Source: Fibrobacter succinogenes subsp. succinogenes S85
Lineage (GTDB): Bacteria > Fibrobacterota > Fibrobacteria > Fibrobacterales > Fibrobacteraceae
Assembly: GCF_000146505.1 (NCBI RefSeq)
Contig: NC_017448.1
Coordinates: forward strand, 2,520,001-2,552,000
Length of the DNA: 32,000 bases
Direction: 5' to 3'
Shown here: one piece after another, positions 5,611 through 29,700 of the stretch
Numbering within the stretch: position 1 is the stretch's first letter
Layout: every line of letters starts with the position of its first letter
Translations under genes and position numbers: made by a program
The notes under the pieces: generated by a model
Database searches by the model: none
The model's input: only the letters and a program-made list of their open reading frames with translations
What the model was told of the DNA's origin: nothing

Positions 5611-6036
5611 CTAACAGAGCATTCGCTCTAACGTGTAAACGTAATATTCTTTAGGTTTTTGATAAACTAGCGGTAAAGGGAAGCCGCAATGGATGCAAAT
5701 AGTTGACCGTGCGATTTTAGTCGCCAACGGTGTAGCCTGTTTGAACGTTGCCGAACTGCGCCCGCCATAGCCTTGAAGGCTACCGCTTCGCGATGTCCGC
5801 AATGAAACCTGCCGGCCCGACCTGCGCGTAAGCAGTGTTGCATCAGCTGTTGATTCGCGTGACTGGTATAACGGATTATCGGCAAAATCGTGAGCAGTGA
5901 AAACTTTCTCACTTTCTGCAACCTGACCAAGTTCAGCGCCGTAATCGTAAACAAAAGAACCCTCGACAATAGCAGAAAGAATCGCGAATAACGCGACTGC
6001 AATCATTGACAAAATATTTTGTTTAACGGGCTTCAT
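5611..6036 (-). CDS. Small hypothetical membrane-anchored protein, last gene of the DUF4405 operon
   Basis: N-terminal anchor MKPVKQNILSMIAVALFAILSAIV. The C-terminal half is R/S/T-rich and may not be genuine coding sequence. It follows DUF4405 by 2-20 nt. Confidence 0.3.
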   Translation of the reverse strand: MKPVKQNILSMIAVALFAILSAIVEGSFVYDYGAELGQVAESEKVFTAHDFADNPLYQSRESTADATLLTRRSGRQVSLRTSRSGSLQGYGGRSSATFKQATPLATKIARSTICIHCGFPLPLVYQKPKEYYVYTLERMLC

Positions 6037-6056
6037 TGTACTAATAATGTACAAAT

Positions 6057-6722
6057 CTACGCCTTCATGAGTTTCGCCACATAATGCACTGCAACGGCGA
6101 ACAGCACGACGATGGCGATATAGTCCGCGAAAAAGAGGGCGTAGCCGCGTTCCGCGTCAAAGAAGAAGAAGGGCTGTTGCAGGAACAAGTATTTCCAAAG
6201 CCCGCGAATGGCGAAGGCGTAAATTCCGTAACCCGCCACAAGAACGGCAACCACGCGAGTTGCGACAAGTGCCGCCTTTGACTTGAATGCTCCCGCAAGT
6301 CCCAAGCGGTTTGCAATCAGGCTTACATGTAGCCCGATGTGAAGCGACATGAACACGTAATACCAATGGCTTGCAAGCAGGTGCGCCGTGCGGGCAAAAC
6401 TTGCGCCCGATTCAATCCCGAGCCAGGCGAACACGTGGTTCGAAAGCATGATTCCGCTCACCATCAAGAAAAATGCGCACAAAAGGATCCCGCAATTCAC
6501 GACCGCCTGCAAAATGCGGAATACGTTGTAGCGGCCCTTGAACAGCGAAAGGAAAAAACGCCGGTTCAGCGTGATATGCACCGCCCACAGAACAAGCAGA
6601 ATCACGCCTAGAATCTCGTGAACAGCAGTCGATTCAAAGAAGTAATTGCCGCCCATCAGCACGAGCGTCGCGACCGTCATCGCGATATCAAGCATCATAC
6701 GGATTTTTGCGGAAATAGGCAT
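6057..6722 (-). CDS. DUF4405-type polytopic membrane protein (His-rich, cytochrome-b-like)
   Basis: About 5-6 hydrophobic helices carry conserved-looking His residues: HEILGVILLVLWAVHITLNRRFF and AHLLASHWYYVFMSLHIGLHV. Confidence 0.75.
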   Translation of the reverse strand: MPISAKIRMMLDIAMTVATLVLMGGNYFFESTAVHEILGVILLVLWAVHITLNRRFFLSLFKGRYNVFRILQAVVNCGILLCAFFLMVSGIMLSNHVFAWLGIESGASFARTAHLLASHWYYVFMSLHIGLHVSLIANRLGLAGAFKSKAALVATRVVAVLVAGYGIYAFAIRGLWKYLFLQQPFFFFDAERGYALFFADYIAIVVLFAVAVHYVAKLMKA

Positions 6723-6737
6723 ATCAATGAATATACA

Positions 6738-8171
6738 TTATTTCGTCTTCACGCCGTTTTTCTCGAGCCACTTGGCCACATCTTTCGAGAGGCTCGAACC
6801 GCCGGAGTAATGCACCGAAAGGCCTTCGCCGATTTTTGCGTTGGGCGCAAGTTTCGCAATCGCGGTGATGCTCTGGCCAAAGCGCCCGCCACCGTGGGAG
6901 CAGAACGGCAGAATCCGCTTGCCCGTAAAGTCGTAACTTTCGAGCAAAGTCGCAATAGGCATCGGGATACTCGCCCACCAGTTGGGGTAACCGATGATAA
7001 TCGTTTCGTAGTCGACCCACTTCTTTGCGTCGGGCTTTTTCTTGAGGGCAGGGCGCGCCTGTTTGTGCTGGTCGTTCTGCGCCTGCTTCAAGACGGTGTT
7101 GTAATCGTCGGAATAGGGCTTCACGAGTTCAAGTTCCACCATGTCGAAACCGGTCTGCTTCTTGATTTCGCGGGCGACACCGCGGGTATTCCCGCTCCAG
7201 GAATAGAAAACGATCAGCGCATGGGAACTGCCTTTAGGGTTCGACGCCGCTTGCGCCTTTTCGCCCTTAAAGCCCGCCGCTTCCTGGGTCACAAAAGTTC
7301 CCTTGACGCCTGCACCCGCATTCATGGCAAGCCTGAGCCCCACATTGTAACTCTTGCTGGATTGCTGCATGGCTCCGCGATAGGCACTGCGGAGGTTCTT
7401 GCCGAAATCGTTCCAGCCGCCACCGCGATGCACGCGCCTTGTGCCCGAAGGCTTGCCCGCCGGGTCAACCGTCACGCTTGTCGAGCCCGCAGAAACACCA
7501 TAATCGCCGTAAAAGTCAAAGCACCATTCGCCCACGTTCCCGTAAATGTCGTAAAGCCCGAAGGGATTGGGCTTGAACTTACCCACGGGAAGCGTGTTCC
7601 CGCGATAAACGCCGGGGCGTGTTTCCAGAACCTCGTCGTTGAAATAATTCTGCTCGATTTGATACGGATAATGCCCGTAAAAATTCACGTCGTCGGCACC
7701 GGGAGCCTTCTTTGTGTAGAAAGGCGTGGTCGTGCCGCCTCGGGCCGCGTATTCCCATTCCGCTTCGGTAGGGAGCCTGTAGCCGTTCGCCTCGCGGTTC
7801 CAACTGACCGCATCGCCATCGATTGCGTAAACAGGAGTGCGTCCGTCGCGTTCGCTTAACTTGTTGCAAAAATGCGCCGCTTCGAGCCACGTGATGTTTT
7901 CAACGGGCAAGTCGTCGCCCTTGAAACTGGAGGGATTTTCGCCTGTCACTTCGCGGTAAAGCTTTTGCGTCACCTCGTATTTGCCCAAGTAAAAATCGGA
8001 GACTTTCACCTTGTGCAGCGTCTCGTCGTTGACACGCCAGTCCTCGTTTGCGGGGCTTCCCATGTTGAAAGTCCCGCCCTTGATAAGCACGAAGCCGTCG
8101 GGCGCAGGTGCCGCCGCAAGCGACACCGCCGAGAACAACAAAATTGCACAAGATAAAAGTTTAGCGAGCAT
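6738..8171 (-). CDS. Exported fusion protein: FGE-sulfatase/SUMF1-like domain + C-terminal flavodoxin-like (Flavodoxin_4-type) domain
   Basis: Signal peptide MLAKLLSCAILLFSAVSLAAAP. FGE-family motifs RLPTEAEWEYAARGG, GNVGEWCFD and RGGGWN. After a linker comes ALIVFYSWSGNTRGVAREI...IIGYPNWWASIPMPI...FCSHGGG, paralogous to the flavodoxin at 21088..21648. Confidence 0.85.
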   Translation of the reverse strand: MLAKLLSCAILLFSAVSLAAAPAPDGFVLIKGGTFNMGSPANEDWRVNDETLHKVKVSDFYLGKYEVTQKLYREVTGENPSSFKGDDLPVENITWLEAAHFCNKLSERDGRTPVYAIDGDAVSWNREANGYRLPTEAEWEYAARGGTTTPFYTKKAPGADDVNFYGHYPYQIEQNYFNDEVLETRPGVYRGNTLPVGKFKPNPFGLYDIYGNVGEWCFDFYGDYGVSAGSTSVTVDPAGKPSGTRRVHRGGGWNDFGKNLRSAYRGAMQQSSKSYNVGLRLAMNAGAGVKGTFVTQEAAGFKGEKAQAASNPKGSSHALIVFYSWSGNTRGVAREIKKQTGFDMVELELVKPYSDDYNTVLKQAQNDQHKQARPALKKKPDAKKWVDYETIIIGYPNWWASIPMPIATLLESYDFTGKRILPFCSHGGGRFGQSITAIAKLAPNAKIGEGLSVHYSGGSSLSKDVAKWLEKNGVKTK

Positions 8172-9385
8172 TATTTCAACTTCCCGTAGTCTTCGTCGCT
8201 CACGGGCTCAAGCCATTCGTTGCGACCACCTTCGCCAGGGACTTCAATCGCCAAATGCTGGAACCAGGAATCCGGAGCTGCCCCGTGCCAATGCTTGACG
8301 CCAGCCGGAATGTTCACCACGTCGCCGGGCTTCAATTCCACCGCCGGCTTGCCCCATTCCTGATAGTAGCCGCGTCCCGCCGTCGCGATGAGAATCTGCC
8401 CACCGCCCTTCTTTGCATGATGGATATGCCAGTTATTGCGGCACGCCGGTTCAAAAGTCACATTCCCGACGCCCACCTGTTCAGTGCTGATCATGTCGAG
8501 ATAACTCTTGCCCACGAAATACTTGGCGTAGGCGTCGTTCGGCTTACCCACCGGGAACACACTCCAGTCCTTGCCTGGCATGGATTTTGCGTCCGCCACG
8601 TTTACAGCACCAGCCTTCGTCTCCGCCACCGATTCCTTGAGCAGTCGCAGAGCGTTTAGCGTACGCGGGTAGCCGCAATACGGCAAGCAGTTGTAAATCG
8701 CCTGTTCCACGTATTCGGCCGTACGAATCTTCAGGTTCGCGCCGATGTGCGCCTTGAGCTGCGGCTCCGTTCCCAAGTTCACGAGAATCGCCATCGTCAA
8801 GAGTTCGCGGGTATTCAGGTCAAGCCCCTTGCGGGTGTAGTAATCGCCAAAGCAGTTGCTCGCAAGGAAGTAATTGATAGTCGGCATACCGCTCTTGCCG
8901 TTCTTCGCCATATCGCGGAAGGTCTGGCCGAACAGCGTTCCCTGCGCGTCGGCACCCGCCTCCAAGCGGGACTGCGCCGTCACCGTCGCACGGCTTTCGT
9001 CCACCTTCACGTTCTTCGCCTTGAACACGCTGCGGGCAATTTCAACTGCATCCACTGTCCGCGGGAACCCGGTGTAGGGAGCGCACTGGTAAATCGCCTC
9101 GAGAATTTCTTCGGGAGCAAGCCCCTGCGCAAGCGCCGTCGCCACTTCTTCTTGCAAAAGAGCGCCCGACTGCTGCGTCACAAGCGACACCAGGCGAATC
9201 AACTCCACCTCGCGCTTTTCCACAAGCGGAGTCGCCGCCGGAACTTCGTTCTGCGTGAAGTTGTCCATCACGGCACGCAGTTCCTTGTCCTGCGAAAGCG
9301 CCTTTGCCTCGCCCTGCGGACAGCAGTCACATGCGGCAAGCACCGCACCCATACCAAGCATCGTCATAATCGTCCCTAGTTTCAT
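8171..9385 (-). CDS. Lipoprotein with two carboxymuconolactone-decarboxylase-family (CMD) domains + C-terminal cupin domain
   Basis: Lipobox GAVLAAC. CMD-type AIYQCAPYTGFPR and AIYNCLPYCGYPR. Cupin_2-type WHIHHAKKGGGQILIATAGRGYY...GDVVNIPAGVKHWHGA. Its stop overlaps the start of the next gene at 8171. Confidence 0.85.
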   Translation of the reverse strand: MKLGTIMTMLGMGAVLAACDCCPQGEAKALSQDKELRAVMDNFTQNEVPAATPLVEKREVELIRLVSLVTQQSGALLQEEVATALAQGLAPEEILEAIYQCAPYTGFPRTVDAVEIARSVFKAKNVKVDESRATVTAQSRLEAGADAQGTLFGQTFRDMAKNGKSGMPTINYFLASNCFGDYYTRKGLDLNTRELLTMAILVNLGTEPQLKAHIGANLKIRTAEYVEQAIYNCLPYCGYPRTLNALRLLKESVAETKAGAVNVADAKSMPGKDWSVFPVGKPNDAYAKYFVGKSYLDMISTEQVGVGNVTFEPACRNNWHIHHAKKGGGQILIATAGRGYYQEWGKPAVELKPGDVVNIPAGVKHWHGAAPDSWFQHLAIEVPGEGGRNEWLEPVSDEDYGKLK

Positions 9386-9460
9386 GGTTTGTTCCTTTTC
9401 TATCTACGCCTTTAATATAAATAAATGCACAAATCCCGCAAAATACCATTTTTTCATGCT

Positions 9461-9483
9461 CAGTATGCACGAAACGCATAGTG
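9461..9483 (-). promoter_or_regulatory. LysR-type box 1 (ATGC-N7-GCAT) upstream of the 9385 operon
   Basis: The plus strand reads CAGTATGCACGAAACGCATAGTG. In gene orientation it lies 41 nt (hand count) upstream of TATATTA. Confidence 0.7.
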
Positions 9484-9612: not shown

Positions 9613-9980
9613 AACCTTTAAAATTCTATCAAAATGATGAAGTTGTCGTTGATTTGGAGTAAAATATGAAAAGATGGATTCAAAAGGGAACATCTTTTTC
9701 TGTAAAAAGTATTTGTCAGATGAATGCTTCTATAGCCTTCTTTTGGACTTTGCCTTTGAGTTCGGCGACTTGCCTTTTATCGCCAATTAGTATTAGTATA
9801 TATTTGTTATTGGAGGTCTATTATGCGAGTGATTTCACAAGAATTCAAGCAGATGCTGAAAGATAGTGATGTGTTGTATTTGCAGACGGCGGGTATCACA
9901 TACAAAAGTAACTAAAATTACAAAATCTTGAATATAATCGACTAGTAATAGACTAAGACAAATCGGAATTTGTGGAGGGA

Positions 9981-10553
9981 ATGATGGAAAATTGCAGGAA
10001 AACTGAACGAGAAAGAATGACAAATGGAGAATCTTTTTTTACAAATGACCCGCAGCTCATGGAGGATAAGAAAAACGCTCGTATCCTCTGTTCTCGTTTT
10101 AATAGTTCTCCGGAAGATGAGTCCTTAAGAAAAGCATTGTTAAAACAACTATTCGGGCACTGCGGGGAGAGGATAGCCATCAAGCCCCCGTTCCATTGTG
10201 ATTACGGATATAACATCTTTGCGGGCGATGACTTGTTCATAAACTTTGACTGCGTGTTCCTGGATGCAGCTCCGATTCGGATTGGAGAACATTGTATGAT
10301 CGGACCTAAAACCTGTATATATGCAATCGGTCATCCGTTGGACGCAGAATCAAGAAGAGAAAAGATTGGTATCCCTAAGCCGGTCACCATTGGCGATAAT
10401 GTCTGGATCGGCGGTGGAGTCACGATTCTTCCGGGTGTATCCATAGGAGATGGCACGGTAATCGCTGCTGCTTCTGTAGTAACTAAATCTTTTCCTGATC
10501 ATGTGGTGATTGCAGGAAACCCAGCAAAAATCATAAAGAATATTGAAGAATAA
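9981..10553 (+). CDS. maa: Maltose/galactoside O-acetyltransferase family (Mac N-terminal domain + hexapeptide repeats)
   Basis: TERERMTNGESFFTNDPQLMEDKKNARILCSRFN is Mac-like. Left-handed beta-helix repeats follow: IGEHCMIGPK, IGDNVWIGGGVTILPGVSIGDGTVIAAASVV. SD GGAGGG is at 9974-9979. The start could be ATG 9981 or 9984; the track's 9972 is a GTG. Confidence 0.85.
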   Translation: MMENCRKTERERMTNGESFFTNDPQLMEDKKNARILCSRFNSSPEDESLRKALLKQLFGHCGERIAIKPPFHCDYGYNIFAGDDLFINFDCVFLDAAPIRIGEHCMIGPKTCIYAIGHPLDAESRREKIGIPKPVTIGDNVWIGGGVTILPGVSIGDGTVIAAASVVTKSFPDHVVIAGNPAKIIKNIEE

Positions 10554-10941: not shown

Positions 10942-13194
10942 ATGGCCCGAGAGGTTTTTATGACGACTTTTTATGTGATTCTTGTGGCCATGCTCCTAAT
11001 CCTTGCCCTGTTCGACCTGTTCGTAGGGGTCAGTAACGATGCCGTGAATTTTCTCAGTTCCGCTGTCGGGAGCAAGGCTTTCAAGTACAAAACCCTGATG
11101 GTCTTTGCTGCAGTGGGCGTGTTCTGTGGCGCTACGTTCAGCAGCGGCATGATGGATATTGCCCGCCATGGCATTTACATGCCCCAGTATTATACCTTTG
11201 CAGAACTTATGTGCGTATATGCGGCGGTGATGTTTACTGACGTAATCCTTCTAGATATTTTCAATTTTTACGGTATGCCCACTTCCACCACAGTTTCCAT
11301 GGTCTTTGAACTTTTGGGCGCCTCTGTGGCTATCGCCAGTATCAAGATTCTTTCTGACGATACCCTGGAACTGGGAAACCTCATCAACACCTCTAAGGCT
11401 CTGACGGTGATTTTGGGCATCTTCCTTTCGGTGGCCATCGCTTTTGTAGTTGGCCTTGCAGTGCAGTATGTGACGCGCCTGGTTTTCTCCTTTGGCTACA
11501 AGAAAAATATTCGATACTTTATTGGTGTTTTTGGAAGCGTTTCCCTGACGTCCATATTTTATTTTATCCTCATCAAGGGCCTCAAAAACATGAGTTTTGT
11601 GGGAGCAGGCTACAAGACTTTTCTCGCGGAAAATGAGACCGTTCTTGTGGCTGGCATGTTCGTCGGATTTTTCGTCCTTTGTCACTTGCTCCATGCGGTA
11701 AAAGTAAACGTGCTCAAGGTAATCATTGCTTTTGGGACTTTTTCTCTGGCTCTTGCCTTTGCCGGAAACGACCTTGTGAATTTTGTGGGGGTACCCCTCA
11801 CCAGCCTTTCTTCGGTGCAGCATTTGATGGCTGCTGGGGGCAATCCTCAGGATTTCAACATGTCCTTCTTGTTGGAGTCGGAACCAGGACAGTGGTACTT
11901 GCTGATGGTTGCTGGGCTTACCATGGTATTCTCCCTTGTGTTTTCCAAGAAGGCTCGGAATGTGGTGAAGACTTCCGTATCCCTAGCGGCCCAAAATTCT
12001 TCTGAAGAAATCTTTGGTACAAATCCGGTCGCTCGCGCCTTAGTTCGCAGTTCTAATGGTGTCGTAAAATTTGTAACAGAATTTATTCCAAGGAAAATTT
12101 CGGATAAAATTAACACCCGCTTTAATACCAAGGAAATGATTCTGGAAGAGGATGGGGCAGCCTTTGATTTGTTGCGGGCCTGCGTGAACCTGATGCTTGC
12201 CAGTTCTCTCATAGCCCTCGGAACTTCACTGAAACTTCCCCTTTCTACCACCTACGTGACCTTCATGGTGGCCATGGGTACAAGCCTTGCCGACAGGGCG
12301 TGGAACCGTGAAACTGCGGTGTACCGCATCACAGGGGTTCTTTCGGTTATTGGAGGCTGGTTCCTGACAGCTTTTGCGGCTTTTGCCAGTGCCTCGGTGG
12401 TGGCTATGGTGCTTCACTTTGGCGGGCTCCCGGTGATATTTGCCCTGTTTGCCGTGGTTATTTTCGTGCTGGTCCGTTCCAACCTGAAGTATCGTGGAAA
12501 CAAGAAGGACAAAACTGAAGAGCGTTTTGAGAAAATTCTTTCTGCAAGCCCCGAAACCAAGGTGTACCCTCTTATTCAGGAATACAGTCGGGGTGAATGG
12601 AGCGAAATTCTCCGCTGGTGTGCCGATTGCTATGAAAAACTGCTGATAGGCCTGTTGCGGGAAGATTTAGGAAGGCTCCGCTCGGTGAACAAACAAATTA
12701 AAATTCTAAAGAAACATGTGCAGCGGAATCGTCGCCACGGAACCCTGTGTACAGAAAGGCTCGCCCAAGAAGATTTGGTGGTCAAAAACTTTTTCCTGTA
12801 TCAGGCCAATGACTTTATGGGGGACGCCCTGTTTAGCCTAGAGCAGATTTCTTCGCCCTGCAAAAATCACGTGGACAACGGCTTTAACCCGATGGACAAC
12901 GAGAAGCGGAAGATGCTCCTGCGAACAGCGGCCCACGTGAAGGAGCGTATCGAGAGTGTCGCCGAGATGGTGGAAATCATGGACTTTGACCGTTATGATC
13001 AAGTCCGGGGCCAGCTGCGGGAAGAAGGTTCCAGGATATTTGCCGAACGAAAGGCCGAGATGATGAAGGCCGGTTCCGAAAACATCCGCGCAGAAATCCT
13101 TTATTTAACTATTCTTTATGAGTCCTGGGCGTTGCTGGATTCGGTCAGTTCCGTGGCCAAAGCCAGTAGAAAATTCCTAACTGTAAAACAATAA
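10942..13194 (+). CDS. Inorganic phosphate transporter, PiT family, with a long cytoplasmic C-terminal helical (PhoU-like?) extension
   Basis: Duplicated PiT signature GVSNDAVNFLSSAVGS and AGNDLVNFVGVPL, with many TM segments. The C-terminal ~240 aa are hydrophilic and helical. An alternative start at 10960 (MTTFYV) has the better SD, GAGAGG. Confidence 0.85.
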   Translation: MAREVFMTTFYVILVAMLLILALFDLFVGVSNDAVNFLSSAVGSKAFKYKTLMVFAAVGVFCGATFSSGMMDIARHGIYMPQYYTFAELMCVYAAVMFTDVILLDIFNFYGMPTSTTVSMVFELLGASVAIASIKILSDDTLELGNLINTSKALTVILGIFLSVAIAFVVGLAVQYVTRLVFSFGYKKNIRYFIGVFGSVSLTSIFYFILIKGLKNMSFVGAGYKTFLAENETVLVAGMFVGFFVLCHLLHAVKVNVLKVIIAFGTFSLALAFAGNDLVNFVGVPLTSLSSVQHLMAAGGNPQDFNMSFLLESEPGQWYLLMVAGLTMVFSLVFSKKARNVVKTSVSLAAQNSSEEIFGTNPVARALVRSSNGVVKFVTEFIPRKISDKINTRFNTKEMILEEDGAAFDLLRACVNLMLASSLIALGTSLKLPLSTTYVTFMVAMGTSLADRAWNRETAVYRITGVLSVIGGWFLTAFAAFASASVVAMVLHFGGLPVIFALFAVVIFVLVRSNLKYRGNKKDKTEERFEKILSASPETKVYPLIQEYSRGEWSEILRWCADCYEKLLIGLLREDLGRLRSVNKQIKILKKHVQRNRRHGTLCTERLAQEDLVVKNFFLYQANDFMGDALFSLEQISSPCKNHVDNGFNPMDNEKRKMLLRTAAHVKERIESVAEMVEIMDFDRYDQVRGQLREEGSRIFAERKAEMMKAGSENIRAEILYLTILYESWALLDSVSSVAKASRKFLTVKQ

Positions 13195-13209
13195 TTTGTG
13201 TGTAATCCT

Positions 13210-15248: not shown

Positions 15249-15250
15249 AA

Positions 15251-15275
15251 GCAAGCCTATTTCTCCCACTTATGG
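15251..15275 (-). repeat. Second copy of the flavodoxin-3'-end-like sequence (direct repeat of 10773..10797)
   Basis: GCAAGCCTATTTCTCCCACTTATGG versus GCAAGCCTACTTCACCCACTTATCG. The first 23 nt differ at 2 positions. It reads HKWEK-stop on the minus strand. Confidence 0.55.
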
Positions 15276-15287
15276 CTCTGTCGGGTC

Positions 15288-15360: not shown

Positions 15361-15377
15361 GGGTAATTTATATTTTC

Positions 15378-15602: not shown

Positions 15603-15641
15603 AAACAGGCCCTAGTAAAGTCAGTTTTATAATATTTCTAG

Positions 15642-18788: not shown

Positions 18789-18792
18789 GGTA

Positions 18793-19978: not shown

Positions 19979-20030
19979 TAGCTTGTCTAACTTGTGGTCA
20001 TCATTCAAAACCAACCAAGGAGTATCAAGA

Positions 20031-21087: not shown

Positions 21088-21648
21088 CTACTTTACCCAC
21101 TTGTCCACTTCTTTCTGGGCCTTGTCGCGTTCGTTCTGGGCCACGTGTCCGTAGATGGCGAGGCCGGGGGTCACGTTCGCGCCGGTCACCTTCTTGAGGC
21201 GCTGCACACCCGAAAGGCCACTGCCTTCGTGGGTCACGAACGGGTGAATCGTTTTGCCCTTCAAATTATACTTCTCGAAGAAGGTGAACATGGGCATGGG
21301 CATTTCGCCCCACCACACCGGGTAACCGACGTAAATCTCGTCGAATTCTTCGGGGTTCACGTTCACCGGCTTGATGGCCGGGCGCGCGTCCTGCGCAAGT
21401 TCCTTCTTGGCCACGTTGATGCAGTCGTCGTATTTCTTGGGGTATTCCTTCGCGGGTTCCACATGCAAGAGCGTGCCGCCCGTCTTTTTCGCAATCATCT
21501 CGGCAATGATTTCGGTATTGCCCTTGGTGATTGTTCCGACTTCATAATTTTCATCGGCACGGGAATAGTATGCGACGAGGATTTTCTTTTCTGCTGCCAT
21601 AGAGACTCCTAGAAGAAGTGATAAAAGAATCAAGGTGATTTTTTTCAT
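21088..21648 (-). CDS. Flavodoxin-like protein (Flavodoxin_4-type) with N-terminal signal peptide
   Basis: MKKITLILLSLLLGVSMA|AEKK, then ILVAYYSRADENY...GNTEIIAEMIAKKTGG...YVGYPVWWGEMPMPM...FVTHEGSG. Confidence 0.85.
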   Translation of the reverse strand: MKKITLILLSLLLGVSMAAEKKILVAYYSRADENYEVGTITKGNTEIIAEMIAKKTGGTLLHVEPAKEYPKKYDDCINVAKKELAQDARPAIKPVNVNPEEFDEIYVGYPVWWGEMPMPMFTFFEKYNLKGKTIHPFVTHEGSGLSGVQRLKKVTGANVTPGLAIYGHVAQNERDKAQKEVDKWVK

Positions 21649-21741: not shown

Positions 21742-21764
21742 CAGTATGCGTGTGGCGCATAGCG
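21742..21764 (-). promoter_or_regulatory. LysR-type box 2, upstream of the flavodoxin gene
   Basis: The plus strand reads CAGTATGCGTGTGGCGCATAGCG, 41 nt from TATATTA in gene orientation. Confidence 0.7.
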
Positions 21765-21854: not shown

Positions 21855-21877
21855 GCCTATGCCTTCAAAGCATATCT
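21855..21877 (+). promoter_or_regulatory. LysR-type box 3, upstream of the aldo-keto reductase gene
   Basis: GCCTATGCCTTCAAAGCATATCT, 41 nt upstream of TATTTTT. That heptamer ends only about 5 nt before the ATG at 21931. Confidence 0.65.
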
Positions 21878-21930
21878 TTTATGCGGAATAAGTATTTGGG
21901 TTTGTTGCGGGATTTGTTTATTTTTAGGGC

Positions 21931-22869
21931 ATGAGGTGGTTCAGTTTCTTGTTCGTTTTCCTGTTCATGGCGTGTTCGAGCGATGCTGCGTCGCAGGCTA
22001 TGCCGAAAGTTTCGAACAAAGGAGATTCGATCGTGCAGAATAGCAAAGGGGCGGCCCCAACGGTCAAGTTGAATTCGGGTTTCGATATGCCGGTTCTCGG
22101 GCTTGGCACTTGGACTTTGCGCGGCAAGGTGGCTGAAGACGCGGTCTATGTCGCCATCAAGAACGGGTATCGACTGATTGATACAGCAAAATATTACGAC
22201 AACGAAGAAGCCGTGGGTAGGGGTATTCGTCGGGCGATTGACGATGGGCTTGTGAAGCGCGAAGATTTGTTCGTGACATCGAAATTGGTGCCGTGGAGCA
22301 GTTCCCTGGACGAAGACATCGACGACTCGCTCGAAAAGCTGGGGCTCGAATATATTGATTTGATGCTGTTGCACCAGCACGGGCGCGACGCCGAAGACAA
22401 GGCGGTTTACAAGGCTATGGAACGTGCTGTGAAGGCGAAGAAGATCCGTTCCATCGGTATTTCGAATTACTACACCGAAAAGACGGCGAAGCGCTTTTTT
22501 GCCGATTTCGAAATCAAGCCTGCCGTGGTGCAAAACGAGAACCATGTGTTTTACCAGAACACGGAATTCAAGGAATACGCAAAACGATACGGCGCTGTGG
22601 TGGAATCTTATTACCCGCTGGGCGGGCGCGGCCACACCGAAGACGTCTTGGGGAACAAGGTTGTCACAAAGATAGCGAAGGCTCACGGGAAATCGGCTGC
22701 ACAGGTGGTGTTGCGCTGGCATGTGCAATCGGGCTACATTGCCATTCCGGGCTCCAAGAACCCTGACCACATCGCAGAAAACATATCGATTTTCGATTTC
22801 GAGTTGACAGACGACGAAATGAAGCAAATCGCCGCCCTTGATACGGGACACCGCTACGAAAACTGGTGA
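21931..22869 (+). CDS. Aldo/keto reductase with lipoprotein-type signal peptide
   Basis: MRWFSFLFVFLFMAC plus an S/A/K-rich linker, then the AKR core: VKLNSGFDMPVLGLGTW, IDTAKYYDNEEAVG, LHQHG, IAIPGSKNPDHIAENI. Confidence 0.9.
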   Translation: MRWFSFLFVFLFMACSSDAASQAMPKVSNKGDSIVQNSKGAAPTVKLNSGFDMPVLGLGTWTLRGKVAEDAVYVAIKNGYRLIDTAKYYDNEEAVGRGIRRAIDDGLVKREDLFVTSKLVPWSSSLDEDIDDSLEKLGLEYIDLMLLHQHGRDAEDKAVYKAMERAVKAKKIRSIGISNYYTEKTAKRFFADFEIKPAVVQNENHVFYQNTEFKEYAKRYGAVVESYYPLGGRGHTEDVLGNKVVTKIAKAHGKSAAQVVLRWHVQSGYIAIPGSKNPDHIAENISIFDFELTDDEMKQIAALDTGHRYENW

Positions 22870-24201: not shown

Positions 24202-24224
24202 CACTATTCACTTGACGCATAGCA
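24202..24224 (+). promoter_or_regulatory. LysR-type box 4 (one half degenerate), overlapping the LysR gene's own promoter
   Basis: CACTATTCACTTGACGCATAGCA, only 7 nt upstream of TATATTC and 34 nt before the ATG at 24258. Confidence 0.6.
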
Positions 24225-24257: not shown

Positions 24258-25061
24258 ATGTTTGTCGAGACCTACATTTTGCGATTGCTGGCCGGGTTCC
24301 TGGAATACGGGACCCTTTCTACCGTAGCGGACAAGCTATACACTTCGCAGCCGGCGGTGAGCCGCGCGTTCAAGAAGCTGGAAGACGAAATCGGTACTCC
24401 GCTTTTTGAGCGCAAAAAGAACCGCATTGAGCTGAACGAGAAGGGACGCACGGTCGCCGAATACGCTAAGCGCATCATGGATTTGCAGGGCGAGATGATG
24501 GAAAAGGTAAGCCCGCAGGGGGCCACGCGCACGTTCTCCATCGCGTCGGTGGCCATCCTCCCCGCCATGCGGATGGTGCAGGAACTGCAGGAGAGATACC
24601 CCGGCGCGCAAGTCACTTACGAGATTATCGACAACGAGGCGGGCGTGCTGAAGGCCTTGAACGAGGGCACGGCGGATATCGGCATCACGCTTAAGGCCCC
24701 ACGTGCAAAGAAGTACCGTGCCGAAAAATACATGCAGGAGCGGCTCTCGATTGCGCTCCCGAAAAAGCATCCGCTTGCGAAGCGCAAGTCCATCCGGCTC
24801 CGGGAACTCAAGGGCGAGACCATCATCCAGCGCAGCAATGTGGGTTTCTGGGAACAGGTCAAGCGCAAGAAGATTCCCGACGCCACCTTCATCAAGCACG
24901 ACAGCACGAAGGGCATTTCAAAGCTCATCGAGCAGTCTTCGCTGTTGACGTTCGTTTCGAACCACCAGTTCGATTACGAAATTCCCAAGGACCGCAAAAT
25001 TGTACCGCTCGCCGACCGCGAAATGAACGTGGAATTTTTTAAGGTGAAGTTAATGAAATAG
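24258..25061 (+). CDS. LysR-family transcriptional regulator
   Basis: N-terminal wHTH LLAGFLEYGTLSTVADKLYTSQPAVSRAFKKLEDEIGTPLFERKKNRIELNEKG, followed by a substrate-binding-like C-terminal domain. Confidence 0.9.
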   Translation: MFVETYILRLLAGFLEYGTLSTVADKLYTSQPAVSRAFKKLEDEIGTPLFERKKNRIELNEKGRTVAEYAKRIMDLQGEMMEKVSPQGATRTFSIASVAILPAMRMVQELQERYPGAQVTYEIIDNEAGVLKALNEGTADIGITLKAPRAKKYRAEKYMQERLSIALPKKHPLAKRKSIRLRELKGETIIQRSNVGFWEQVKRKKIPDATFIKHDSTKGISKLIEQSSLLTFVSNHQFDYEIPKDRKIVPLADREMNVEFFKVKLMK

Positions 25062-25084: not shown

Positions 25085-25486
25085 TTATTTCCTGATGAAC
25101 TTTTCGTCGGTCTTGGGCATGGTGTTGTCGGGCGTGAAGCGTTCGGCAGTCATTTTCAAGTCGTACTTGTCGCGGAGTTTCGCAATCGTCTTCATCATGG
25201 GCGAAGCGTGGTGCACGTCGATGGCAGCCTGGCTTTCCCACGCGTCAATCAGCAAGATGGTCTCGGGATCGTCAAGCGACTGGAAATATTCGTAGCGGAT
25301 GTTGCCCTTCTCGGCACGGATTTTCGCCACCGTTCCGCTAGAAACCATCTCTTCGGCGAACTTCTTTGCCGCCCCGTTCTTACCCGTATAGCGCAGGTTT
25401 ACCGTAATGTTGCTCATGACACTCTCCGCAAACACGCTCGCCGCGAGCGCAAGGATTGAAAACAGTGTTAAAAACTTGAGTTTCAT
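25085..25486 (-). CDS. ABM (antibiotic-biosynthesis/quinol monooxygenase-like) domain protein with signal peptide
   Basis: MKLKFLTLFSILALAASVFA|ES, then the ferredoxin-like ABM pattern ...IRYEYFQSLDDPETILLIDAWESQAAIDVHHASP. Confidence 0.7.
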   Translation of the reverse strand: MKLKFLTLFSILALAASVFAESVMSNITVNLRYTGKNGAAKKFAEEMVSSGTVAKIRAEKGNIRYEYFQSLDDPETILLIDAWESQAAIDVHHASPMMKTIAKLRDKYDLKMTAERFTPDNTMPKTDEKFIRK

Positions 25487-25560: not shown

Positions 25561-25583
25561 CAGTATGCGCATGACGCATAGTG
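25561..25583 (-). promoter_or_regulatory. LysR-type box 5, upstream of the ABM gene
   Basis: The plus strand reads CAGTATGCGCATGACGCATAGTG (near-perfect palindrome), 41 nt from TATATTA in gene orientation. It abuts the stop of the upstream gene (25589). Confidence 0.7.
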
Positions 25584-25588: not shown

Positions 25589-26104
25589 CTATTCCACCGA
25601 AAATGTCGCCTTCACGTTCCCTTTGCCGAGAATCTGCTGGAGGCGTTTCTTATTTACGTTGTCGATACGGGCGAGGCGCGTGAAATTCCAGGAATTCTTG
25701 TCGTAGTAAATGGTGATGGAGTTGCCCTGGTAAAGGATGATGTCGCCTGCGTCGGTGTCGATTTGCTTGTCATTACGCGGAAAACTGCGCGGCAGGTCAG
25801 CCACCTTCTCGAAGCTGCCGTAGTCGTGCATGTCGAGCGTCATGTCGCCCTGCATAAGGAATTCGGCGAAGGCCTTGGCCGAGGAATTTTCTTCGAGCGT
25901 CGCTGTGAAGGTGGTATCGTTCACATGGATTTTTAGTTTCACGGGAGCCTCCGTTTGGGCAGATGAACTTGCTGGCACTGCGCCGGGCGTTTTACTGGCG
26001 GACGATTTCGGCGTCTGAGCTTCGGGTTGCGTCGAATGACTCGCCGCATCGCTGCAGGCCACGAGAAAGAACAACGCTATAAGTACAATGTTTCGCATAC
26101 ACAC
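25589..26104 (-). CDS. Cyclophilin-like-fold lipoprotein
   Basis: Lipobox ALFFLVAC plus an S/T/P/A-rich linker. This is followed by IHVNDTTFTATLEENSSAKAFAEFL...DAGDIILYQGNSITIYYDKN...ARID, typical of the cyclophilin-like family often found next to flavodoxins. Confidence 0.65.
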   Translation of the reverse strand: MCMRNIVLIALFFLVACSDAASHSTQPEAQTPKSSASKTPGAVPASSSAQTEAPVKLKIHVNDTTFTATLEENSSAKAFAEFLMQGDMTLDMHDYGSFEKVADLPRSFPRNDKQIDTDAGDIILYQGNSITIYYDKNSWNFTRLARIDNVNKKRLQQILGKGNVKATFSVE

Positions 26105-26152
26105 AATATAAATAATTGTGCGAGCGATTCAAAATACTTATTTGCTATGACT

Positions 26153-26175
26153 CACTATGCCTTTTGCGCATGAAT
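26153..26175 (-). promoter_or_regulatory. LysR-type box 6, upstream of the cyclophilin-like gene
   Basis: The plus strand reads CACTATGCCTTTTGCGCATGAAT, 42 nt from TATATTG in gene orientation. That -10 lies within about 5 nt of the ATG. Confidence 0.65.
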
Positions 26176-26178
26176 TCA

Positions 26179-26207
26179 CGGAAATAAACACCGAAGTAAA
26201 ACACCTT
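26179..26207. repeat. Partial third copy of the R1/R2 repeat (right-end portion)
   Basis: CGGAAATAAACACCGAAGTAAAACACCTT versus CGGAAATAAACATTGAAGTAAAACATCTT (26/29). It abuts the GNAT gene stop codon. Confidence 0.55.
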
Positions 26208-26818
26208 TATTTAATATCAATCAAATCAAAATACATTAAACGTGTATGCAAAGGTTTTTCTCCCAGCATTTTCACGTTTATTCCAAGAGCCCTTGCTTCG
26301 TTAATTTCGGAACTATAAAGGAATTTGAAATTGTTTTTCTGATAGTAATGAATGACTTCCGGTTTATTGATTGCATCAACGATGATAAACCGGCAACCGG
26401 TCTTGTTTTCGTCGCTACGGAACCAAGCTTTGATGAAGTCCATTACTGCAGAGCCAAAACCTTGTTTGGCAAATTCAATATTCGTCCCCAGGCGACCGAC
26501 CAAAACTCCGGGATAGCGGCGAAGATTCTTCTCGCCATTCTCAGTGACATATTCAATCTTCGCCTTGTCTTCAGGAGCAAGTTGTTTGATTCGAATTGAA
26601 TCGTTTGATATTGTAAATGCAGCAACGATGCTTTCGGGACGCTCTCTTAGCCGAAAGACATAAGTCTTTCCCAAAAGTTTCTCGCCGTACAAGCGGAAAT
26701 CCTCCCTGAAAAATTCGTCAAGGTCTTCATTTCCGCATTTGAAGGGGTTGCAACTTTGCAGCAATTCTGAAGAAAGCCGAGCAAACGAGCATCGGTTCAA
26801 AAAATCGGCAAGGGTCAT
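26207..26818 (-). CDS. GNAT-family N-acetyltransferase, toxin-like (TacT/KacT-style architecture)
   Basis: FKCGNEDLDEFFRED near the N-terminus resembles the F-x-CG-x-x-LD-x-(F/W)L motif of GNAT toxins. Acetyl-CoA region GVLVGRLGTNIEFAKQGFGSAVMDF. A small ORF lies 2 nt upstream. Confidence 0.7.
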   Translation of the reverse strand: MTLADFLNRCSFARLSSELLQSCNPFKCGNEDLDEFFREDFRLYGEKLLGKTYVFRLRERPESIVAAFTISNDSIRIKQLAPEDKAKIEYVTENGEKNLRRYPGVLVGRLGTNIEFAKQGFGSAVMDFIKAWFRSDENKTGCRFIIVDAINKPEVIHYYQKNNFKFLYSSEINEARALGINVKMLGEKPLHTRLMYFDLIDIK

Positions 26819-26820
26819 GT

Positions 26821-26976
26821 CTAGAAACCTTGTTCGCGGAGGAATTTCCTAACGAGCAGGATTTTATCACCAAAATCCTGTTTACGCTCGTTCTTTTCGG
26901 CGTATTCGGCTTCCTTGAGAAAACGTTCAGCGTCTTCCCCTTGAAGCGTTGGTATGGATCTTATTGCCACTGCCAT
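26821..26976 (-). CDS. Small (51 aa) putative antitoxin/partner protein
   Basis: MAVAIRSIPTLQGEDAERFLKEAEYAEKNERKQDF..., with SD GAGGAG 7 nt upstream of the ATG at 26976. Its stop lies 2 nt before the GNAT start. The longer 86-aa track ORF would run into the upstream terminator. Confidence 0.5.
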   Translation of the reverse strand: MAVAIRSIPTLQGEDAERFLKEAEYAEKNERKQDFGDKILLVRKFLREQGF

Positions 26977-27064
26977 AGGTTTACTCCTCAGTTTAAAAAT
27001 AGGTTTTAAAAGTCTAAATGTCAATATGGCGTTTTTGCGCATATCCTTAAAATAGCATTTGAAA

Positions 27065-27112
27065 ATGGCAAAAAATGACAAAAAGCAACCAAGGTCACAT
27101 TTGTGACCTTGG
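27065..27112 (-). terminator. Rho-independent terminator of the hydrolase gene
   Basis: CCAAGGTCACA-tt-TGTGACCTTGG is a perfect 11-bp inverted repeat. On the minus strand it is followed by TTGCTTTTTGTCATTTTTTG. Confidence 0.75.
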
Positions 27113-27149: not shown

Positions 27150-28355
27150 TTACTTCAAGTTCGTCTTGAAGAATTCGTTCAGCTTTTCGAAGGGAATTTT
27201 TTCCAGGTTGTCGTAGAGGTCAACATGGGAGGCTCCAGGGATAACGAGGAGTTCCTTGTTGCCGACGGTCTTGCTCCAGTTCTTGGTGGCGTCGAGTTTT
27301 GCGGGGACGTTTGCCTTCTTGCCGGTCATCTTTTCGAATGCGCCTTCGCCGAAGTAGCGGCTATGGGCCTTTTCGCCGTGGATGATGAGCACCGGGTTAC
27401 GGATTTCGTCGGCGTATGCGAGGAGCTTGGTGTTCATGAGCGAGGTGCCTGCGGAGGCGGCCCAGCCCTTGTTGCTGTTGAGGGAACGCTTGTGATAGCC
27501 GCGCGGGGTCTTGTAGTAAGCGTAGTAATCCTTGACAAAGTAAGGAGCGTCGTCCGGGAGCGGGTCAATAACACCGCCGGCCAGGTCGTACGAGCCGTTC
27601 TTGAAATCCTTGGTGCGCTGGGCCATCAGAGCCTTGCGGGCCTCGTTACGGGCGTCAGCGTTGTTTGCGGAATCGAAGTAGCCGTTCGCGGTTACGCGGC
27701 TCATGTCGTACATGGTCGAGGCGACCGTCGCCTTTACGCGGGTATCGATGCCGGCAGCGTTAATCGCCATGCCGCCCCAGCCGCAAATGCCGATGATGCC
27801 GATGCGTTCCGGGTCAACGTTGTCGCGGTTCGAGAGAAAGTCCACGGACGCCATGAAGTCTTCGGTGTTGATGTCCGGGCTGTTCATGTAGCGCGGCTCG
27901 CCACCCGATTCGCCGGTGAAGCTCGGGTCGAAAGCGATGGTCAGGAATCCGCGTTCCGCCATCTGTTGGGCGTAAAGGCCGCTGGACTGTTCCTTGACGG
28001 CACCGAACGGGCCAGAGACCGCGATCGCGGGAAACTTGCCGTTCACCTTAAGGCTCGTGTCCTTGGGCACGAACATATCGGCGGCGAGTTCAATGCCAAA
28101 GTGGTTCTTGAAAGTGACCTTGGAATGTTCGACCTTGTCGCTCTTGGGGAAAACCTTATCCCATTCGGCGGTGAGCGTGAGCTTGTTCATATTTTCGTCC
28201 TTTGTCTGTTGTGCTGCGGAGGCTGTTTCTGTTGCGGACTGCGCGGCCGGCGTGGCGGCACCTTGCGCAGCATTGTTTTCTTTTTCGGGGCAGCATGCCA
28301 TCAGGGTGCATGCGGAAACCACGGCGAGCGCCGCTTTTAAGAATCTGGATTTCAT
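27150..28355 (-). CDS. Alpha/beta hydrolase lipoprotein, dienelactone-hydrolase-like with a Cys in the nucleophile elbow
   Basis: Lipobox AVVSAC/TLMAC plus an A/Q/T-rich linker. Nucleophile elbow GIIGICGWGG (G-x-C-x-G). HG oxyanion-type IHGEKA and a late GASHVDLYD. Confidence 0.85.
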   Translation of the reverse strand: MKSRFLKAALAVVSACTLMACCPEKENNAAQGAATPAAQSATETASAAQQTKDENMNKLTLTAEWDKVFPKSDKVEHSKVTFKNHFGIELAADMFVPKDTSLKVNGKFPAIAVSGPFGAVKEQSSGLYAQQMAERGFLTIAFDPSFTGESGGEPRYMNSPDINTEDFMASVDFLSNRDNVDPERIGIIGICGWGGMAINAAGIDTRVKATVASTMYDMSRVTANGYFDSANNADARNEARKALMAQRTKDFKNGSYDLAGGVIDPLPDDAPYFVKDYYAYYKTPRGYHKRSLNSNKGWAASAGTSLMNTKLLAYADEIRNPVLIIHGEKAHSRYFGEGAFEKMTGKKANVPAKLDATKNWSKTVGNKELLVIPGASHVDLYDNLEKIPFEKLNEFFKTNLK

Positions 28356-28476: not shown

Positions 28477-28499
28477 TGTTATGCTTTTTAGGCATGGAT
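28477..28499 (-). promoter_or_regulatory. LysR-type box 7, upstream of the hydrolase gene
   Basis: The plus strand reads TGTTATGCTTTTTAGGCATGGAT, 41 nt from TAATATT in gene orientation. Confidence 0.6.
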
Positions 28500-28514
28500 A
28501 TTTAATAAACGAAT

Positions 28515-29125
28515 TCAATCAGGTTGCTGGCCGTCGTGAGCTTTCCACAGGCATTCCGTCAATGCAAAGTCTGAAAATTTTGCCAAGAACGAGGAATCTT
28601 CAGGGCTACAAGCGTAAATACCAAAGCGGATTTTACCAGCACCTTCCCACATATGGCAAATGCGCATTTGCGTGAAGTTTTTTCCATCTTGCGAACATTC
28701 TATGCAATAGTCACTTTCTCGACGGCTAAAGCGGAACCACATCGTTTTAATTTCGGCACTGATAGCAGTCGTAGCCCAGTCGGAATAACCGTGGTTGGTT
28801 ACAACCGAACCAAGATGCTGGAATTTTTCATTTTCGTATTCAACAGATGCTTTCAGCCAATTTTCAGAATCAAGATACATAGCGATTCCGCACTGATCGA
28901 AGCGATGATGGCTTCCAGAAAAATCTGTTTTCATGACAAACGAGAAAAATTTTTCCTCCGTTTCAATCGAAGAACCGGCGCATTGTCGTTGCGAAAACGG
29001 TAATAAGTTCTTTGCCAAAGATCCGTATGCGGATCGGTCACGATGCAAATTTCATCCTCGCCAACTTTGTAAGTTGCAGGTTCGCGAGTCCATTTCAGGT
29101 CGGCAGAGTCAAAAACTTGCTTCAT
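28515..29125 (-). pseudogene. DUF1349-family (concanavalin-like) gene interrupted by a 1-nt frameshift
   Basis: The N-terminal 50 aa (MKQVFDSADLKWTREP...TDLWQRTYYRFRNDNAPVL) are in one frame. The rest (IETEEKFFSFVMKTDF...FDQCGIAMYLDSENWLKASVEYE...) is in the -1 frame. The switch lies at about 28965-28972. Confidence 0.7.
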
Positions 29126-29160
29126 GAGGAATACCTTTTTTCATAGTTGATCACCCTTTA

Positions 29161-29700
29161 TTAAGCTTTCTTTCCCATGGCGAACGCTTTTTTCAGGAGC
29201 GCGGAATTCTTCTTGACATCGCCTGCGCTTTCGGCACCTGTGGCGCAGAGAGCGCCCTTGAGCTTCACGCCGTCAAAGCAGGCAATCCACCCGCCAATGC
29301 CGCGCTTTGCGATGTTCATGGCCTTCGCATCGGTGTCGGCGGCAGAAGTGAGCAGGTAAATTTCGCGGAACTTGTAATCGCTGGAATAGAGGGAATTCGC
29401 GCGGTCGAGCATCGTCTTGAGCTGGCCGCTCATCTCGTAATAGTAAATCGGCGTTGCAAACACGATGACATCGGCCGATTCCATCTTCTTGGTGATGGCG
29501 GGAGCGTCGTCCTTGATGACGCATTTGCCCTTCTTCTGGCAAGCAAGGCAGCCCATGCAAAAACCGATCTTCTTGCCGCGCAGCGACTCGAATTCCACCT
29601 TGTTGCCCGCCTCGGCGGCACCCTTCGCGAACTCCTGCGCCAGGGTTTCGGAGTTGCTACCCTTACGCAAGCTGCTGGACAAGACCAATACTTTTTTCAT
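29161..29700 (-). CDS. Iron-sulfur flavoprotein-like NAD(P)H-dependent FMN reductase (flavodoxin fold), cytoplasmic
   Basis: MKKVLVLSSSLRKGSNSE (FMN_red type). The compact Cys motif CMGCLACQKKGKC (CX2CX2CX5C) matches Isf-type 4Fe-4S flavoproteins. There is no signal peptide. Confidence 0.8.
   Translation of the reverse strand: MKKVLVLSSSLRKGSNSETLAQEFAKGAAEAGNKVEFESLRGKKIGFCMGCLACQKKGKCVIKDDAPAITKKMESADVIVFATPIYYYEMSGQLKTMLDRANSLYSSDYKFREIYLLTSAADTDAKAMNIAKRGIGGWIACFDGVKLKGALCATGAESAGDVKKNSALLKKAFAMGKKA

Follow-up and report, generated by a model that had tools for sequence, protein, structure and literature searches.

Co-regulated exported flavodoxins, exported enzymes and a predicted di-haem cytochrome b of Fibrobacter succinogenes S85 as a candidate envelope redox or detoxification module

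We analysed a stretch of 32,000 nucleotides of the genome of Fibrobacter succinogenes subsp. succinogenes S85 (NC_017448.1, positions 2,520,001 to 2,552,000; hereafter the window), which corresponds to Fisuc_1692-1718 of CP001792.1, and identified a set of genes (Fisuc_1692-1694 and Fisuc_1708-1718) that share operator-like palindromes and encode a polytopic membrane protein of the DUF4405 family, two Flavodoxin_4 proteins and several further proteins, nearly all of the soluble ones being predicted to be exported, mostly as exported versions of normally intracellular enzymes. Our preferred reading, which we regard as roughly an even call, is that these genes constitute a LysR-controlled and horizontally mobile envelope redox or detoxification module of gut and rumen anaerobes. 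The set falls into two groups. An operon on the minus strand (9385 to 5611), in which the genes overlap or lie close together, encodes in this order a protein with two CMD domains and a cupin domain (CMD2-cupin), a fusion of a domain of the formylglycine-generating enzyme (FGE)-sulfatase type with a Flavodoxin_4 domain (FGE-Fld4), the DUF4405 protein and a small membrane protein. The second group contains genes for a stand-alone Flavodoxin_4 protein (Fld4), an aldo-keto reductase (AKR), an AAA_14 ATPase, a LysR-type regulator, an ABM-fold protein, a Cyclophil_like2 protein (CypL2), a GNAT toxin pair, an alpha/beta hydrolase (abH), a frameshifted DUF1349 protein and an FMN_red protein resembling Isf. 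Pfam confirmed every one of the domain calls made in an initial annotation of the sequence.

The proposal of that annotation that the genes form one regulon was borne out by the distribution of an exact ATGC-N7-GCAT palindrome. Seven copies were found in the 32 kb compared to 0.60±0.84 expected, none of 100 shuffled sequences reached seven, and all seven are located upstream of the CMD2-cupin operon and of the genes for Fld4, AKR, ABM, CypL2, abH and Isf, one per unit promoter and nowhere else in the window. Downstream of each exact box lies a second, degenerate dyad, and beyond it, at a similar distance each time, a -10 element resembling TTTATATT. LysR-type recognition and activation sites are usually arranged in this way, and the seven promoter boxes share the T-N11-A-type dyad expected of a LysR-type regulon. 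The LysR gene is preceded by a box with one mismatch (24206-24220), an unrelated metagenome contig (L013) also has the ATGC-N7-GCAT box ahead of its CMD-AKR-...-FGE-Fld4 operon, and LysR genes flank related clusters in two other loci (L015 and L017). On these sequence patterns the co-regulation of the seven promoters is well supported, with the LysR-type protein Fisuc_1711 presumed to bind the boxes. The Pho genes at 10942-20912, which sit between the CMD2-cupin operon and the second group, were rejected as members of the set since they lack boxes and belong to unrelated families. At the AKR (21900-21933) and CypL2 (26098-26135) genes only 5-6 nt separate the end of a TTTATTT/TTTATATT -10-like element from the ATG, which suggests that these two transcripts may be leaderless or nearly so.

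Export was predicted by heuristic rules rather than by SignalP or LipoP, requiring a basic n-region, an uncharged h-region of at least 10 residues, and either an AXA-type site or a PROSITE-type lipobox cysteine. The seven proteins to which export signals had been ascribed all passed these rules, and the cytoplasmic proteins of the window were all negative. By the same rules, three signals resemble those cleaved by signal peptidase I, namely those of FGE-Fld4 (MLAKLLSCAILLFSAVSLAAA, cleaved before P), Fld4 (MKKITLILLSLLLGVSMA, before AE) and ABM (MKLKFLTLFSILALAASVFA, ending in ASVFA, before ES). The remaining four are lipoprotein-like and precede a cysteine, in CMD2-cupin (MKLGTIMTMLGMGAVLAA), in AKR (MRWFSFLFVFLFMA, with a linker of 27 amino acids behind the cysteine), in CypL2 (MRNIVLIALFFLVA, with an S/T/P linker of approximately 40 amino acids) and in abH (...ACTLMA, also followed by a linker). 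The mature forms of CMD2-cupin and abH start with CDCC and CC, respectively, and thus have extra cysteines right behind the lipidated one. Export was predicted for seven of the eight soluble regulon products as compared to four of the 16 further soluble proteins that the window encodes (Fisher p=0.006). A twin-arginine (RR) motif is absent from the n-regions of all seven signals, and export by the twin-arginine translocation (Tat) pathway with a pre-loaded cofactor was rejected on this ground.

Homologues elsewhere do not uniformly lack signals, a possibility that the initial annotation had raised; those of FGE-Fld4, AKR and Fld4 mostly carry them. Almost all of approximately 120 FGE-Fld4 homologues (61-97% identity; Fibrobacter, Treponema and Firmicute-like contigs) are signal-bearing, and the few without a signal start at a Met within it. 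In the clade closest to the AKR (62-68% identity; Spirochaetia, Synergistaceae and others), searched with the mature part only to avoid signal bias, signals were found in 77 of 121 members, the rest being mostly internal-Met truncations. When the mature Fld4 was scored against 1.8 billion cluster representatives, 105 of the 150 best-scoring ones had a signal or lipobox, and Tat motifs were seen in a few distant relatives. Among Fibrobacter populations, two unrelated signal alleles occur on CMD2-cupin and three on CypL2, the proteins being otherwise at least 93% identical, and the abH linker varies by in-frame indels. Since unrelated, functional-looking signal alleles replace each other and the linker indels stay in frame, these patterns point to selection acting on export and not on the signal sequence in Fibrobacter populations.

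The DUF4405 protein (Pfam score 33.5 bits; cut-off 26.7) has a hydropathy profile that suggests about six transmembrane segments, and its residues H35, H49, H114, H128 and H132 do not vary among four sequences of 29-53% identity. A purified DUF4405 protein of Oscillospiraceae was recently shown to bind haem b, the family having four central histidines and a six-transmembrane fold resembling MsrQ and PepSY-like cytochromes, and its genes, mainly from Firmicutes and Proteobacteria, cluster with apbE and with genes for flavinylated Flavodoxin_4 proteins and for a flavin transporter (Huang, Meheust, Barquera and Light, 2024, mSystems; PMC11334425). The relationship to cytochrome b had been predicted earlier (Makarova et al., 2015; PMC5898192). 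The published haem b member with its extracytosolic Flavodoxin_4 link and the five invariant histidines seen here strengthen the cytochrome-b-like character first proposed for the S85 protein, and the accompanying statement that no characterised system has this composition is outdated for the DUF4405/Fld4 core (PMC11334425). Beyond these two papers, phrase searches of the literature for exported flavodoxins, exported AKRs or the combined family set yielded nothing relevant.

In the window, the gene for the signal-bearing FGE-Fld4 lies 15 bp upstream of the DUF4405 gene in the same operon. We scanned metagenomes with DUF4405 as anchor and obtained 63 diverse loci (41-64% identity), many of them on short contigs. 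A flavodoxin-domain gene within 1.5 kb and on the same strand as the DUF4405 gene was present in 38 of the 63, and among 39 N-terminally complete stand-alone Fld4 genes by DUF4405, 33 encode exported and six cytoplasmic forms. Judged by these associations, the constant core of the module is an exported Flavodoxin_4 domain together with DUF4405.

This core appears to work without covalent flavinylation. No apbE gene (PF02424) was found among the window genes scanned with Pfam or the called genes of nine related loci, nor among the families listed for approximately 200 open reading frames flanking DUF4405. The [S/T]GA[S/T] flavinylation motif is absent from both Fld4 domains, which have only TGGT and SGGS elsewhere, and from the beta1-alpha1 loop of all of the 150 nearest Fld4 representatives (0/150). 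In FGE-Fld4 the FMN-loop motifs SWSGNT, YPNWW and SHGGG are invariant in the family. The FGE-like domain lacks the catalytic, copper-binding cysteine pair, the equivalent segment RGGGWNDFGKNLRSAYR being Cys-free and family-invariant, and the identity of this SUMF1/FGE domain as a formylglycine-generating enzyme was rejected for this reason. By sequence it is nearest to the Treponema denticola variable protein (TvpA), FGE, PorK and PvdO, and it is probably a ligand- or partner-binding domain.

The co-occurrence of these families in other taxa, a survey of which the initial annotation had proposed, is pronounced, as they form a recurrent and functionally linked set around FGE-Fld4 or DUF4405 in Treponema and Firmicutes from rumen and gut and in metagenome contigs. 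Six independent FGE-Fld4 loci (Treponema sp. JC4, three metagenome contigs, and metagenome-assembled genomes of a Mollicutes and a Lachnospiraceae member) each hold two to six other families out of DUF4405, extra Fld4, CMD, cupin, AKR, CypL2, S15-like hydrolase, ABM, FMN_red, LysR and Mac acetyltransferase. None of these other families was carried by 78 control loci with generic FGE-domain genes, which came from an FGE-Fld4 alignment scan of 80 loci with two true fusions. The S85 operon (window 6000-9400) has a GC content of 52-58% against a background of 44-49%, its FGE-Fld4 protein is 72% identical to that of Treponema sp. JC4, and ParB, Mob, integrase, TnpV or resolvase genes often border related clusters; taken together, these features indicate a horizontal transfer of the module between rumen phyla.

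The view that almost everything in the set is exported held for S85 and failed for other taxa, where ABM, abH and CMD/cupin proteins beside DUF4405 are cytoplasmic. There, export was predicted for 0/22 ABM, 0/4 abH and 0/3 CMD/cupin proteins, for seven of eight CypL2 proteins, and for AKR in five cases against five. The localisation of the accessory enzymes thus appears to be a mosaic across taxa, of which S85 would be the extreme, nearly all partners having acquired signals. Because of this mosaic the data suggest that the substrate is small and membrane-permeant and that flavodoxin is not an obligatory donor. The ABM protein illustrates the pattern, being approximately 75% identical to ABM proteins whose genes directly follow that for DUF4405 in 22 other loci. 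Since these cytoplasmic orthologues start (MAITVNLRY) exactly at M24 of the window protein, its signal peptide seems to have been added at the N-terminus specifically in Fibrobacter, and translation may begin at two sites. Exported abH homologues were found in two loci (L009 and L011).

The exported AKR clade is the most surprising element of the set, its turnover outside the cytoplasm being unexplained by our findings. The catalytic tetrad Asp-Tyr-Lys-His is kept (DTAKYY, VTSKL and LLHQH, conserved in 112 clade members), as are most contacts to the nicotinamide cofactor. Only the two basic residues that contact the 2'-phosphate of NADPH (Lys/Arg in IPKS...R..EN) are replaced, by Gly and His, and the resulting IPGSxNPxHIxEN is invariant across the 112 exported-clade sequences. 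Exported AKR genes accompany CypL2, CMD, exported Fld4 and DUF4405 (L097, with DUF4405 at E=5e-84 to the window protein), and AKR-CypL2 fusions occur in other organisms in both cytoplasmic and lipoprotein forms. Among PDB entries, the AKR is best matched by Thermotoga maritima TM1009 (1VP5) and the cupin domain (8171-8560) by TM1010 (2F4P) of this species. As these locus tags are consecutive, and the genes hence presumably adjacent, the AKR-cupin pairing is probably conserved in Thermotoga, in cytoplasmic form; neither protein shows any sign of export.

Among the other regulon proteins, the cupin of CMD2-cupin scored 113.8 bits on the NCBIfam (R)-mandelonitrile lyase model, which is under the cut-off of 140, and also matches the Mn-dependent hydroxynitrile lyase GtHNL. 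A sequence search of the PDB gave no match for CypL2. The Isf-like protein combines an FMN_red fold with the sequence motif CX2CX2CX5C (C47-X2-C50-X2-C53-X5-C59), the two characters that define Isf being this fold and a compact CX2CX2CX4-7C motif; it has no signal by the heuristic rules, and homologues were found in two related loci (L011 and L018) and in five of the 63 DUF4405 loci.

The sequences show export signals, a regulon, a conserved association of the genes, the histidine ligands and a lack of ApbE and of a flavinylation motif; the direction and partners of electron flow, FMN loading outside the cell and the substrate are our inference. Electrons would originate in the cytoplasm, from the co-regulated Isf-type Fe-S flavoprotein (as Fre feeds MsrQ) or from the quinol pool, and would be passed outward by the DUF4405 di-haem cytochrome b in the cytoplasmic membrane. 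They would be received by the exported, non-covalently FMN-binding Flavodoxin_4 domain, here fused to an FGE-like domain and accompanied by a second, free exported flavodoxin. Reduced flavodoxin may then serve the co-regulated exported enzymes (CMD-cupin, AKR, ABM, the cyclophilin-like protein and the hydrolase) or, alternatively, may directly reduce an oxidant or electrophile that is small and permeates the membrane, for instance a quinone, an aldehyde, a lactone or an O2-derived species. Of the scheme first proposed, in which a membrane cytochrome delivers electrons to exported flavodoxin, the core stands, while donor, acceptors and substrate are unproven.

The module also fits a response to oxidants or electrophiles. 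Related clusters elsewhere have TetR, MerR, Rrf2 and HxlR regulators nearby and rubrerythrin, ferritin, AhpC and rubredoxin-type genes, among them a rubredoxin fusion, as frequent neighbours, and in S85 the expression of the regulon was low and flat in unstressed chemostats (log2 3.8-6.9 compared to 10-14 for abundant transcripts; Neumann, 2018; PMC6204037). It is these stress-type regulators, neighbours and very low unstressed expression that suggest such a response. No regulon protein is among the entries listed in the cell-envelope proteome of S85, which is uninformative on location (PMC6851124). Low expression and absence from the listed entries are both compatible with an inducible system.

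Several points weigh against the electron-transfer module as we propose it. No flavin exporter was found in the window, and since Fld4 export is of the Sec type, FMN would have to be acquired outside the cell. In the same way, Sec-type export would rule out co-transport of a bound cofactor by the AKR, for which no extracytoplasmic source of NAD(P)H is apparent. With Isf in only five of the 63 DUF4405 loci, it would not be an obligate partner of DUF4405, and with ABM, abH and CMD/cupin cytoplasmic elsewhere, it appears that flavodoxin cannot be a universal donor to these enzymes. A Met is retained exactly at the junction of signal and mature protein in Fld4 (M17) and ABM (M24), so both could also be made as a cytoplasmic isoform from this internal start. 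Lastly, the AlphaFold2 model of FGE-Fld4 (14-sequence alignment; mean pLDDT 61.7, FGE domain mostly <50) was too poor for a domain-interface analysis or a fold search.

These points have to be weighed against other explanations. A possible one, clearly less probable than the envelope redox module, is a toolbox of independent envelope enzymes that the LysR regulator switches on together and that share no electron chain. They would detoxify a plant-derived or oxidative toxin, DUF4405/Fld4 being just one of them and perhaps acting at the surface as a reductase of quinones, flavins or O2, and the AKR, CMD-cupin, hydrolase, ABM and CypL2 proteins would act without flavodoxin. The mosaic localisation of the accessory enzymes, the non-exported AKR and cupin pair of Thermotoga and the fact that tight adjacency to DUF4405 is seen for Fld4 only would all be expected from such a toolbox; however, it leaves the cofactor supply of the exported AKRs unexplained, the co-occurrence of the families with DUF4405/Fld4 is strong and specific, and the AKR-CypL2 fusions argue for at least some physical coupling. 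We consider it unlikely that the exported Flavodoxin_4 proteins are instead flavin-binding, flavin-scavenging or flavin-shuttle carriers, with DUF4405 reducing bound or free flavin for extracellular electron transfer. Many Fld4 relatives are indeed cell-surface proteins of more than one domain that carry several Fld4 repeats or an SLH-like N-terminus, one related locus (L017) has five lipoprotein Fld4 copies beside DUF4405, and DUF4405 has been described in the context of flavin-based extracytosolic transfer (PMC11334425), but no flavin transporter, ApbE or FMN_bind protein is among the families listed for these clusters, and a more specific role is suggested by the fusion to an FGE-like domain and by the shared regulation with enzymes.

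That the signal peptides are artefacts or unused because of downstream starts, leaving ordinary cytoplasmic stress enzymes, is very improbable in our view. The GenBank start of Fld4 is the internal M17 (a 170-aa form), which together with the junction Met in Fld4 and ABM and the cytoplasmic ABM orthologues elsewhere is what such an explanation can draw on. On the other hand, no downstream codon that could serve as a start lies ahead of the domain in AKR, FGE-Fld4, CMD2-cupin, CypL2 and abH, and the signals are kept across phyla and swapped for other functional-looking alleles. In addition, a Shine-Dalgarno sequence precedes the upstream ATG of CMD2-cupin, Fld4 (AAAGG, first ATG), ABM (GGAG) and abH, and the -10-like element of AKR and CypL2 puts the first ATG at the transcript start. 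Beyond the envelope redox module as such, we also considered a farther-reaching version of it, which we hold to be doubtful. Here, an ApbE-independent mobile and reductive envelope pathway of gut and rumen anaerobes, made up of a haem-b cytochrome and Sec-exported non-covalent flavodoxins, would power, outside the cytoplasm, enzymes of nicotinamide-dependent folds that are classically cytoplasmic, including the AKR clade, the enzymes either taking electrons from flavodoxin or holding a non-exchangeable cofactor that flavodoxin recycles.

Table 1. Genes and operator-like palindromes of the candidate regulon and possible associates in the S85 window.
Feature	Position	Strand	Basis or remark
Small signal-anchored protein, 141 aa, last in operon	5611..6036	-	No family
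DUF4405 polytopic membrane protein, predicted di-haem cytochrome b, Fisuc_1692	6057..6722	-	Pfam PF14358
Exported FGE-sulfatase and Flavodoxin_4 fusion (FGE-Fld4), Fisuc_1693	6738..8171	-	Pfam; start overlaps stop of upstream gene
CMD2-cupin lipoprotein, two CMD (PcaC-like) domains and C-terminal cupin, Fisuc_1694	8171..9385	-	Pfam 2xCMD and Cupin_2; lipobox VLAAC
Operator-like palindrome ATGCACGAAACGCAT, upstream of CMD2-cupin operon	9465..9479		Exact match; 79 nt before ATG, then TTTATATT -10-like element
Mac-type (maltose O-acetyltransferase-like) O-acetyltransferase, divergent from CMD2-cupin operon, possible associate	9972..10553	+	Pfam
Exported stand-alone Flavodoxin_4, long-loop type (Fld4), Fisuc_1708	21088..21648	-	Pfam and signal
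Operator-like palindrome upstream of Fld4	21746..21760		Exact match
Operator-like palindrome upstream of AKR	21859..21873		Exact match
Lipoprotein aldo-keto reductase (AKR), Fisuc_1709	21931..22869	+	Pfam; lipobox LFMAC
LysR-type regulator, Fisuc_1711	24258..25061	+	HTH_1 and LysR_substrate (Pfam)
ABM-fold protein with signal peptide, Fisuc_1712	25085..25486	-	Pfam
Operator-like palindrome upstream of ABM	25565..25579		Exact match
Cyclophil_like2 lipoprotein (CypL2), Fisuc_1713	25589..26098	-	Pfam; lipobox FLVAC
Operator-like palindrome upstream of CypL2	26157..26171		Exact match
Alpha/beta hydrolase lipoprotein (abH), S15/DLH-like, Fisuc_1716	27150..28355	-	Pfam; lipobox TLMAC
Operator-like palindrome upstream of abH	28481..28495		Exact match
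N-truncated, frameshifted DUF1349 gene downstream of Isf	28515..29048	-	Membership doubtful; no own box
Cytoplasmic Isf-like Fe-S flavoprotein, Fisuc_1718	29161..29700	-	FMN_red PF03358
Operator-like palindrome upstream of Isf	29786..29800		Exact match

The remaining genes of the region (Table 1) are less closely tied to the module. The Mac acetyltransferase gene has a box with one mismatch only (9724), and such a gene accompanies FGE-Fld4 or DUF4405 clusters in two related loci (L015 and L017) and in five DUF4405 metagenome loci. The 141-aa protein at the end of the operon had no Pfam or NCBIfam match and is found after DUF4405 in Fibrobacter-type contigs only. The DUF1349 gene is indeed broken, as initially reported, its first approximately 25 codons (ATG near 29125) lying in another frame than the 177-aa open reading frame and the Pfam match beginning at profile position 45. 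An AAA_14/DUF4143 ATPase gene (22979-24196), a GNAT toxin gene with its small upstream partner (26207-27081) and a YhcG/DUF1016 nuclease gene (29841-30866) are interspersed among the regulon genes, making the region look like a variable island. In other organisms, DUF3737, extra AKRs, Fe-ADH, DXP-synthase-like and PNPOx genes recur near related clusters. The DUF3737 gene, encoding a beta-helix protein, adjoins FGE-Fld4 (L009, 7090-7989), a CypL2-AKR fusion (L098, 1663-2520) and, in seven loci, DUF4405; it is absent from the S85 window.

Compared to known systems, the S85 genes most resemble, in their core, the published clusters of DUF4405, flavinylated Flavodoxin_4 and ApbE (PMC11334425), with which they share a DUF4405 protein with central histidines, an adjacent gene for an extracytosolic Flavodoxin_4 protein and presumed outward electron transfer. 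In contrast to those clusters, the S85 window and approximately 70 related loci have no apbE among the families listed, and there is no [S/T]GA[S/T] insertion, no flavin transporter, and a flavodoxin fused to an FGE-like domain. Furthermore, the core here forms part of a LysR regulon whose exported products include AKR, CMD-cupin, ABM, CypL2 and the hydrolase, and the present branch extends to Fibrobacterota and Spirochaetota besides Firmicutes. MsrPQ with Fre of Escherichia coli (PMC12525009) follows the same stress-inducible logic, from a cytoplasmic flavoprotein or quinol via a haem-b membrane protein to a periplasmic repair or detoxification partner; however, DUF4405 falls outside the MsrQ (Ferric_reduct) Pfam family, the partner is a flavodoxin and not a molybdoenzyme, and the putative donor is of the Isf type. 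Flavin-based extracellular electron transfer in Listeria (Ndh2/EetAB/PplA) and the PepSY-like/FMN-bind systems likewise have lipoprotein flavoproteins on the outside that are fed by a dedicated membrane component, but those systems use ApbE-flavinylated FMN_bind proteins and a quinone-linked Ndh2, whereas here we find a flavodoxin fold, no flavinylation machinery and a cytochrome b.

The FGE-sulfatase fold of the N-terminal domain of the fusion is shared with FGE, PvdO, PorK-GldK and TvpA, of which exported members (PvdO, PorK and TvpA) are common, but the FGE cysteine pair is missing here and a flavodoxin fusion is found in no characterised member. For a nicotinamide enzyme outside the cytoplasm, the periplasmic glucose-fructose oxidoreductase of Zymomonas with its non-dissociable NADP offers a precedent. 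That enzyme is exported folded via Tat with the cofactor already bound, whereas the AKR described here has a Sec-type lipoprotein signal.

To date, the transfer of electrons beyond the cytosol of anaerobes has mostly been linked to ApbE-flavinylated proteins. The S85 locus and its relatives suggest a second, flavinylation-independent route, based on DUF4405 and exported flavodoxins, which is widespread in rumen and gut and crosses phyla. With a clear operator at seven promoters the regulon is experimentally tractable, and the exported AKR clade poses the question of what drives a nicotinamide-type reductase outside the cytoplasm. If the module shields strict anaerobes from oxidants or plant electrophiles at the cell surface, this would have a bearing on fibre degradation in the rumen and on colonisation of the gut.

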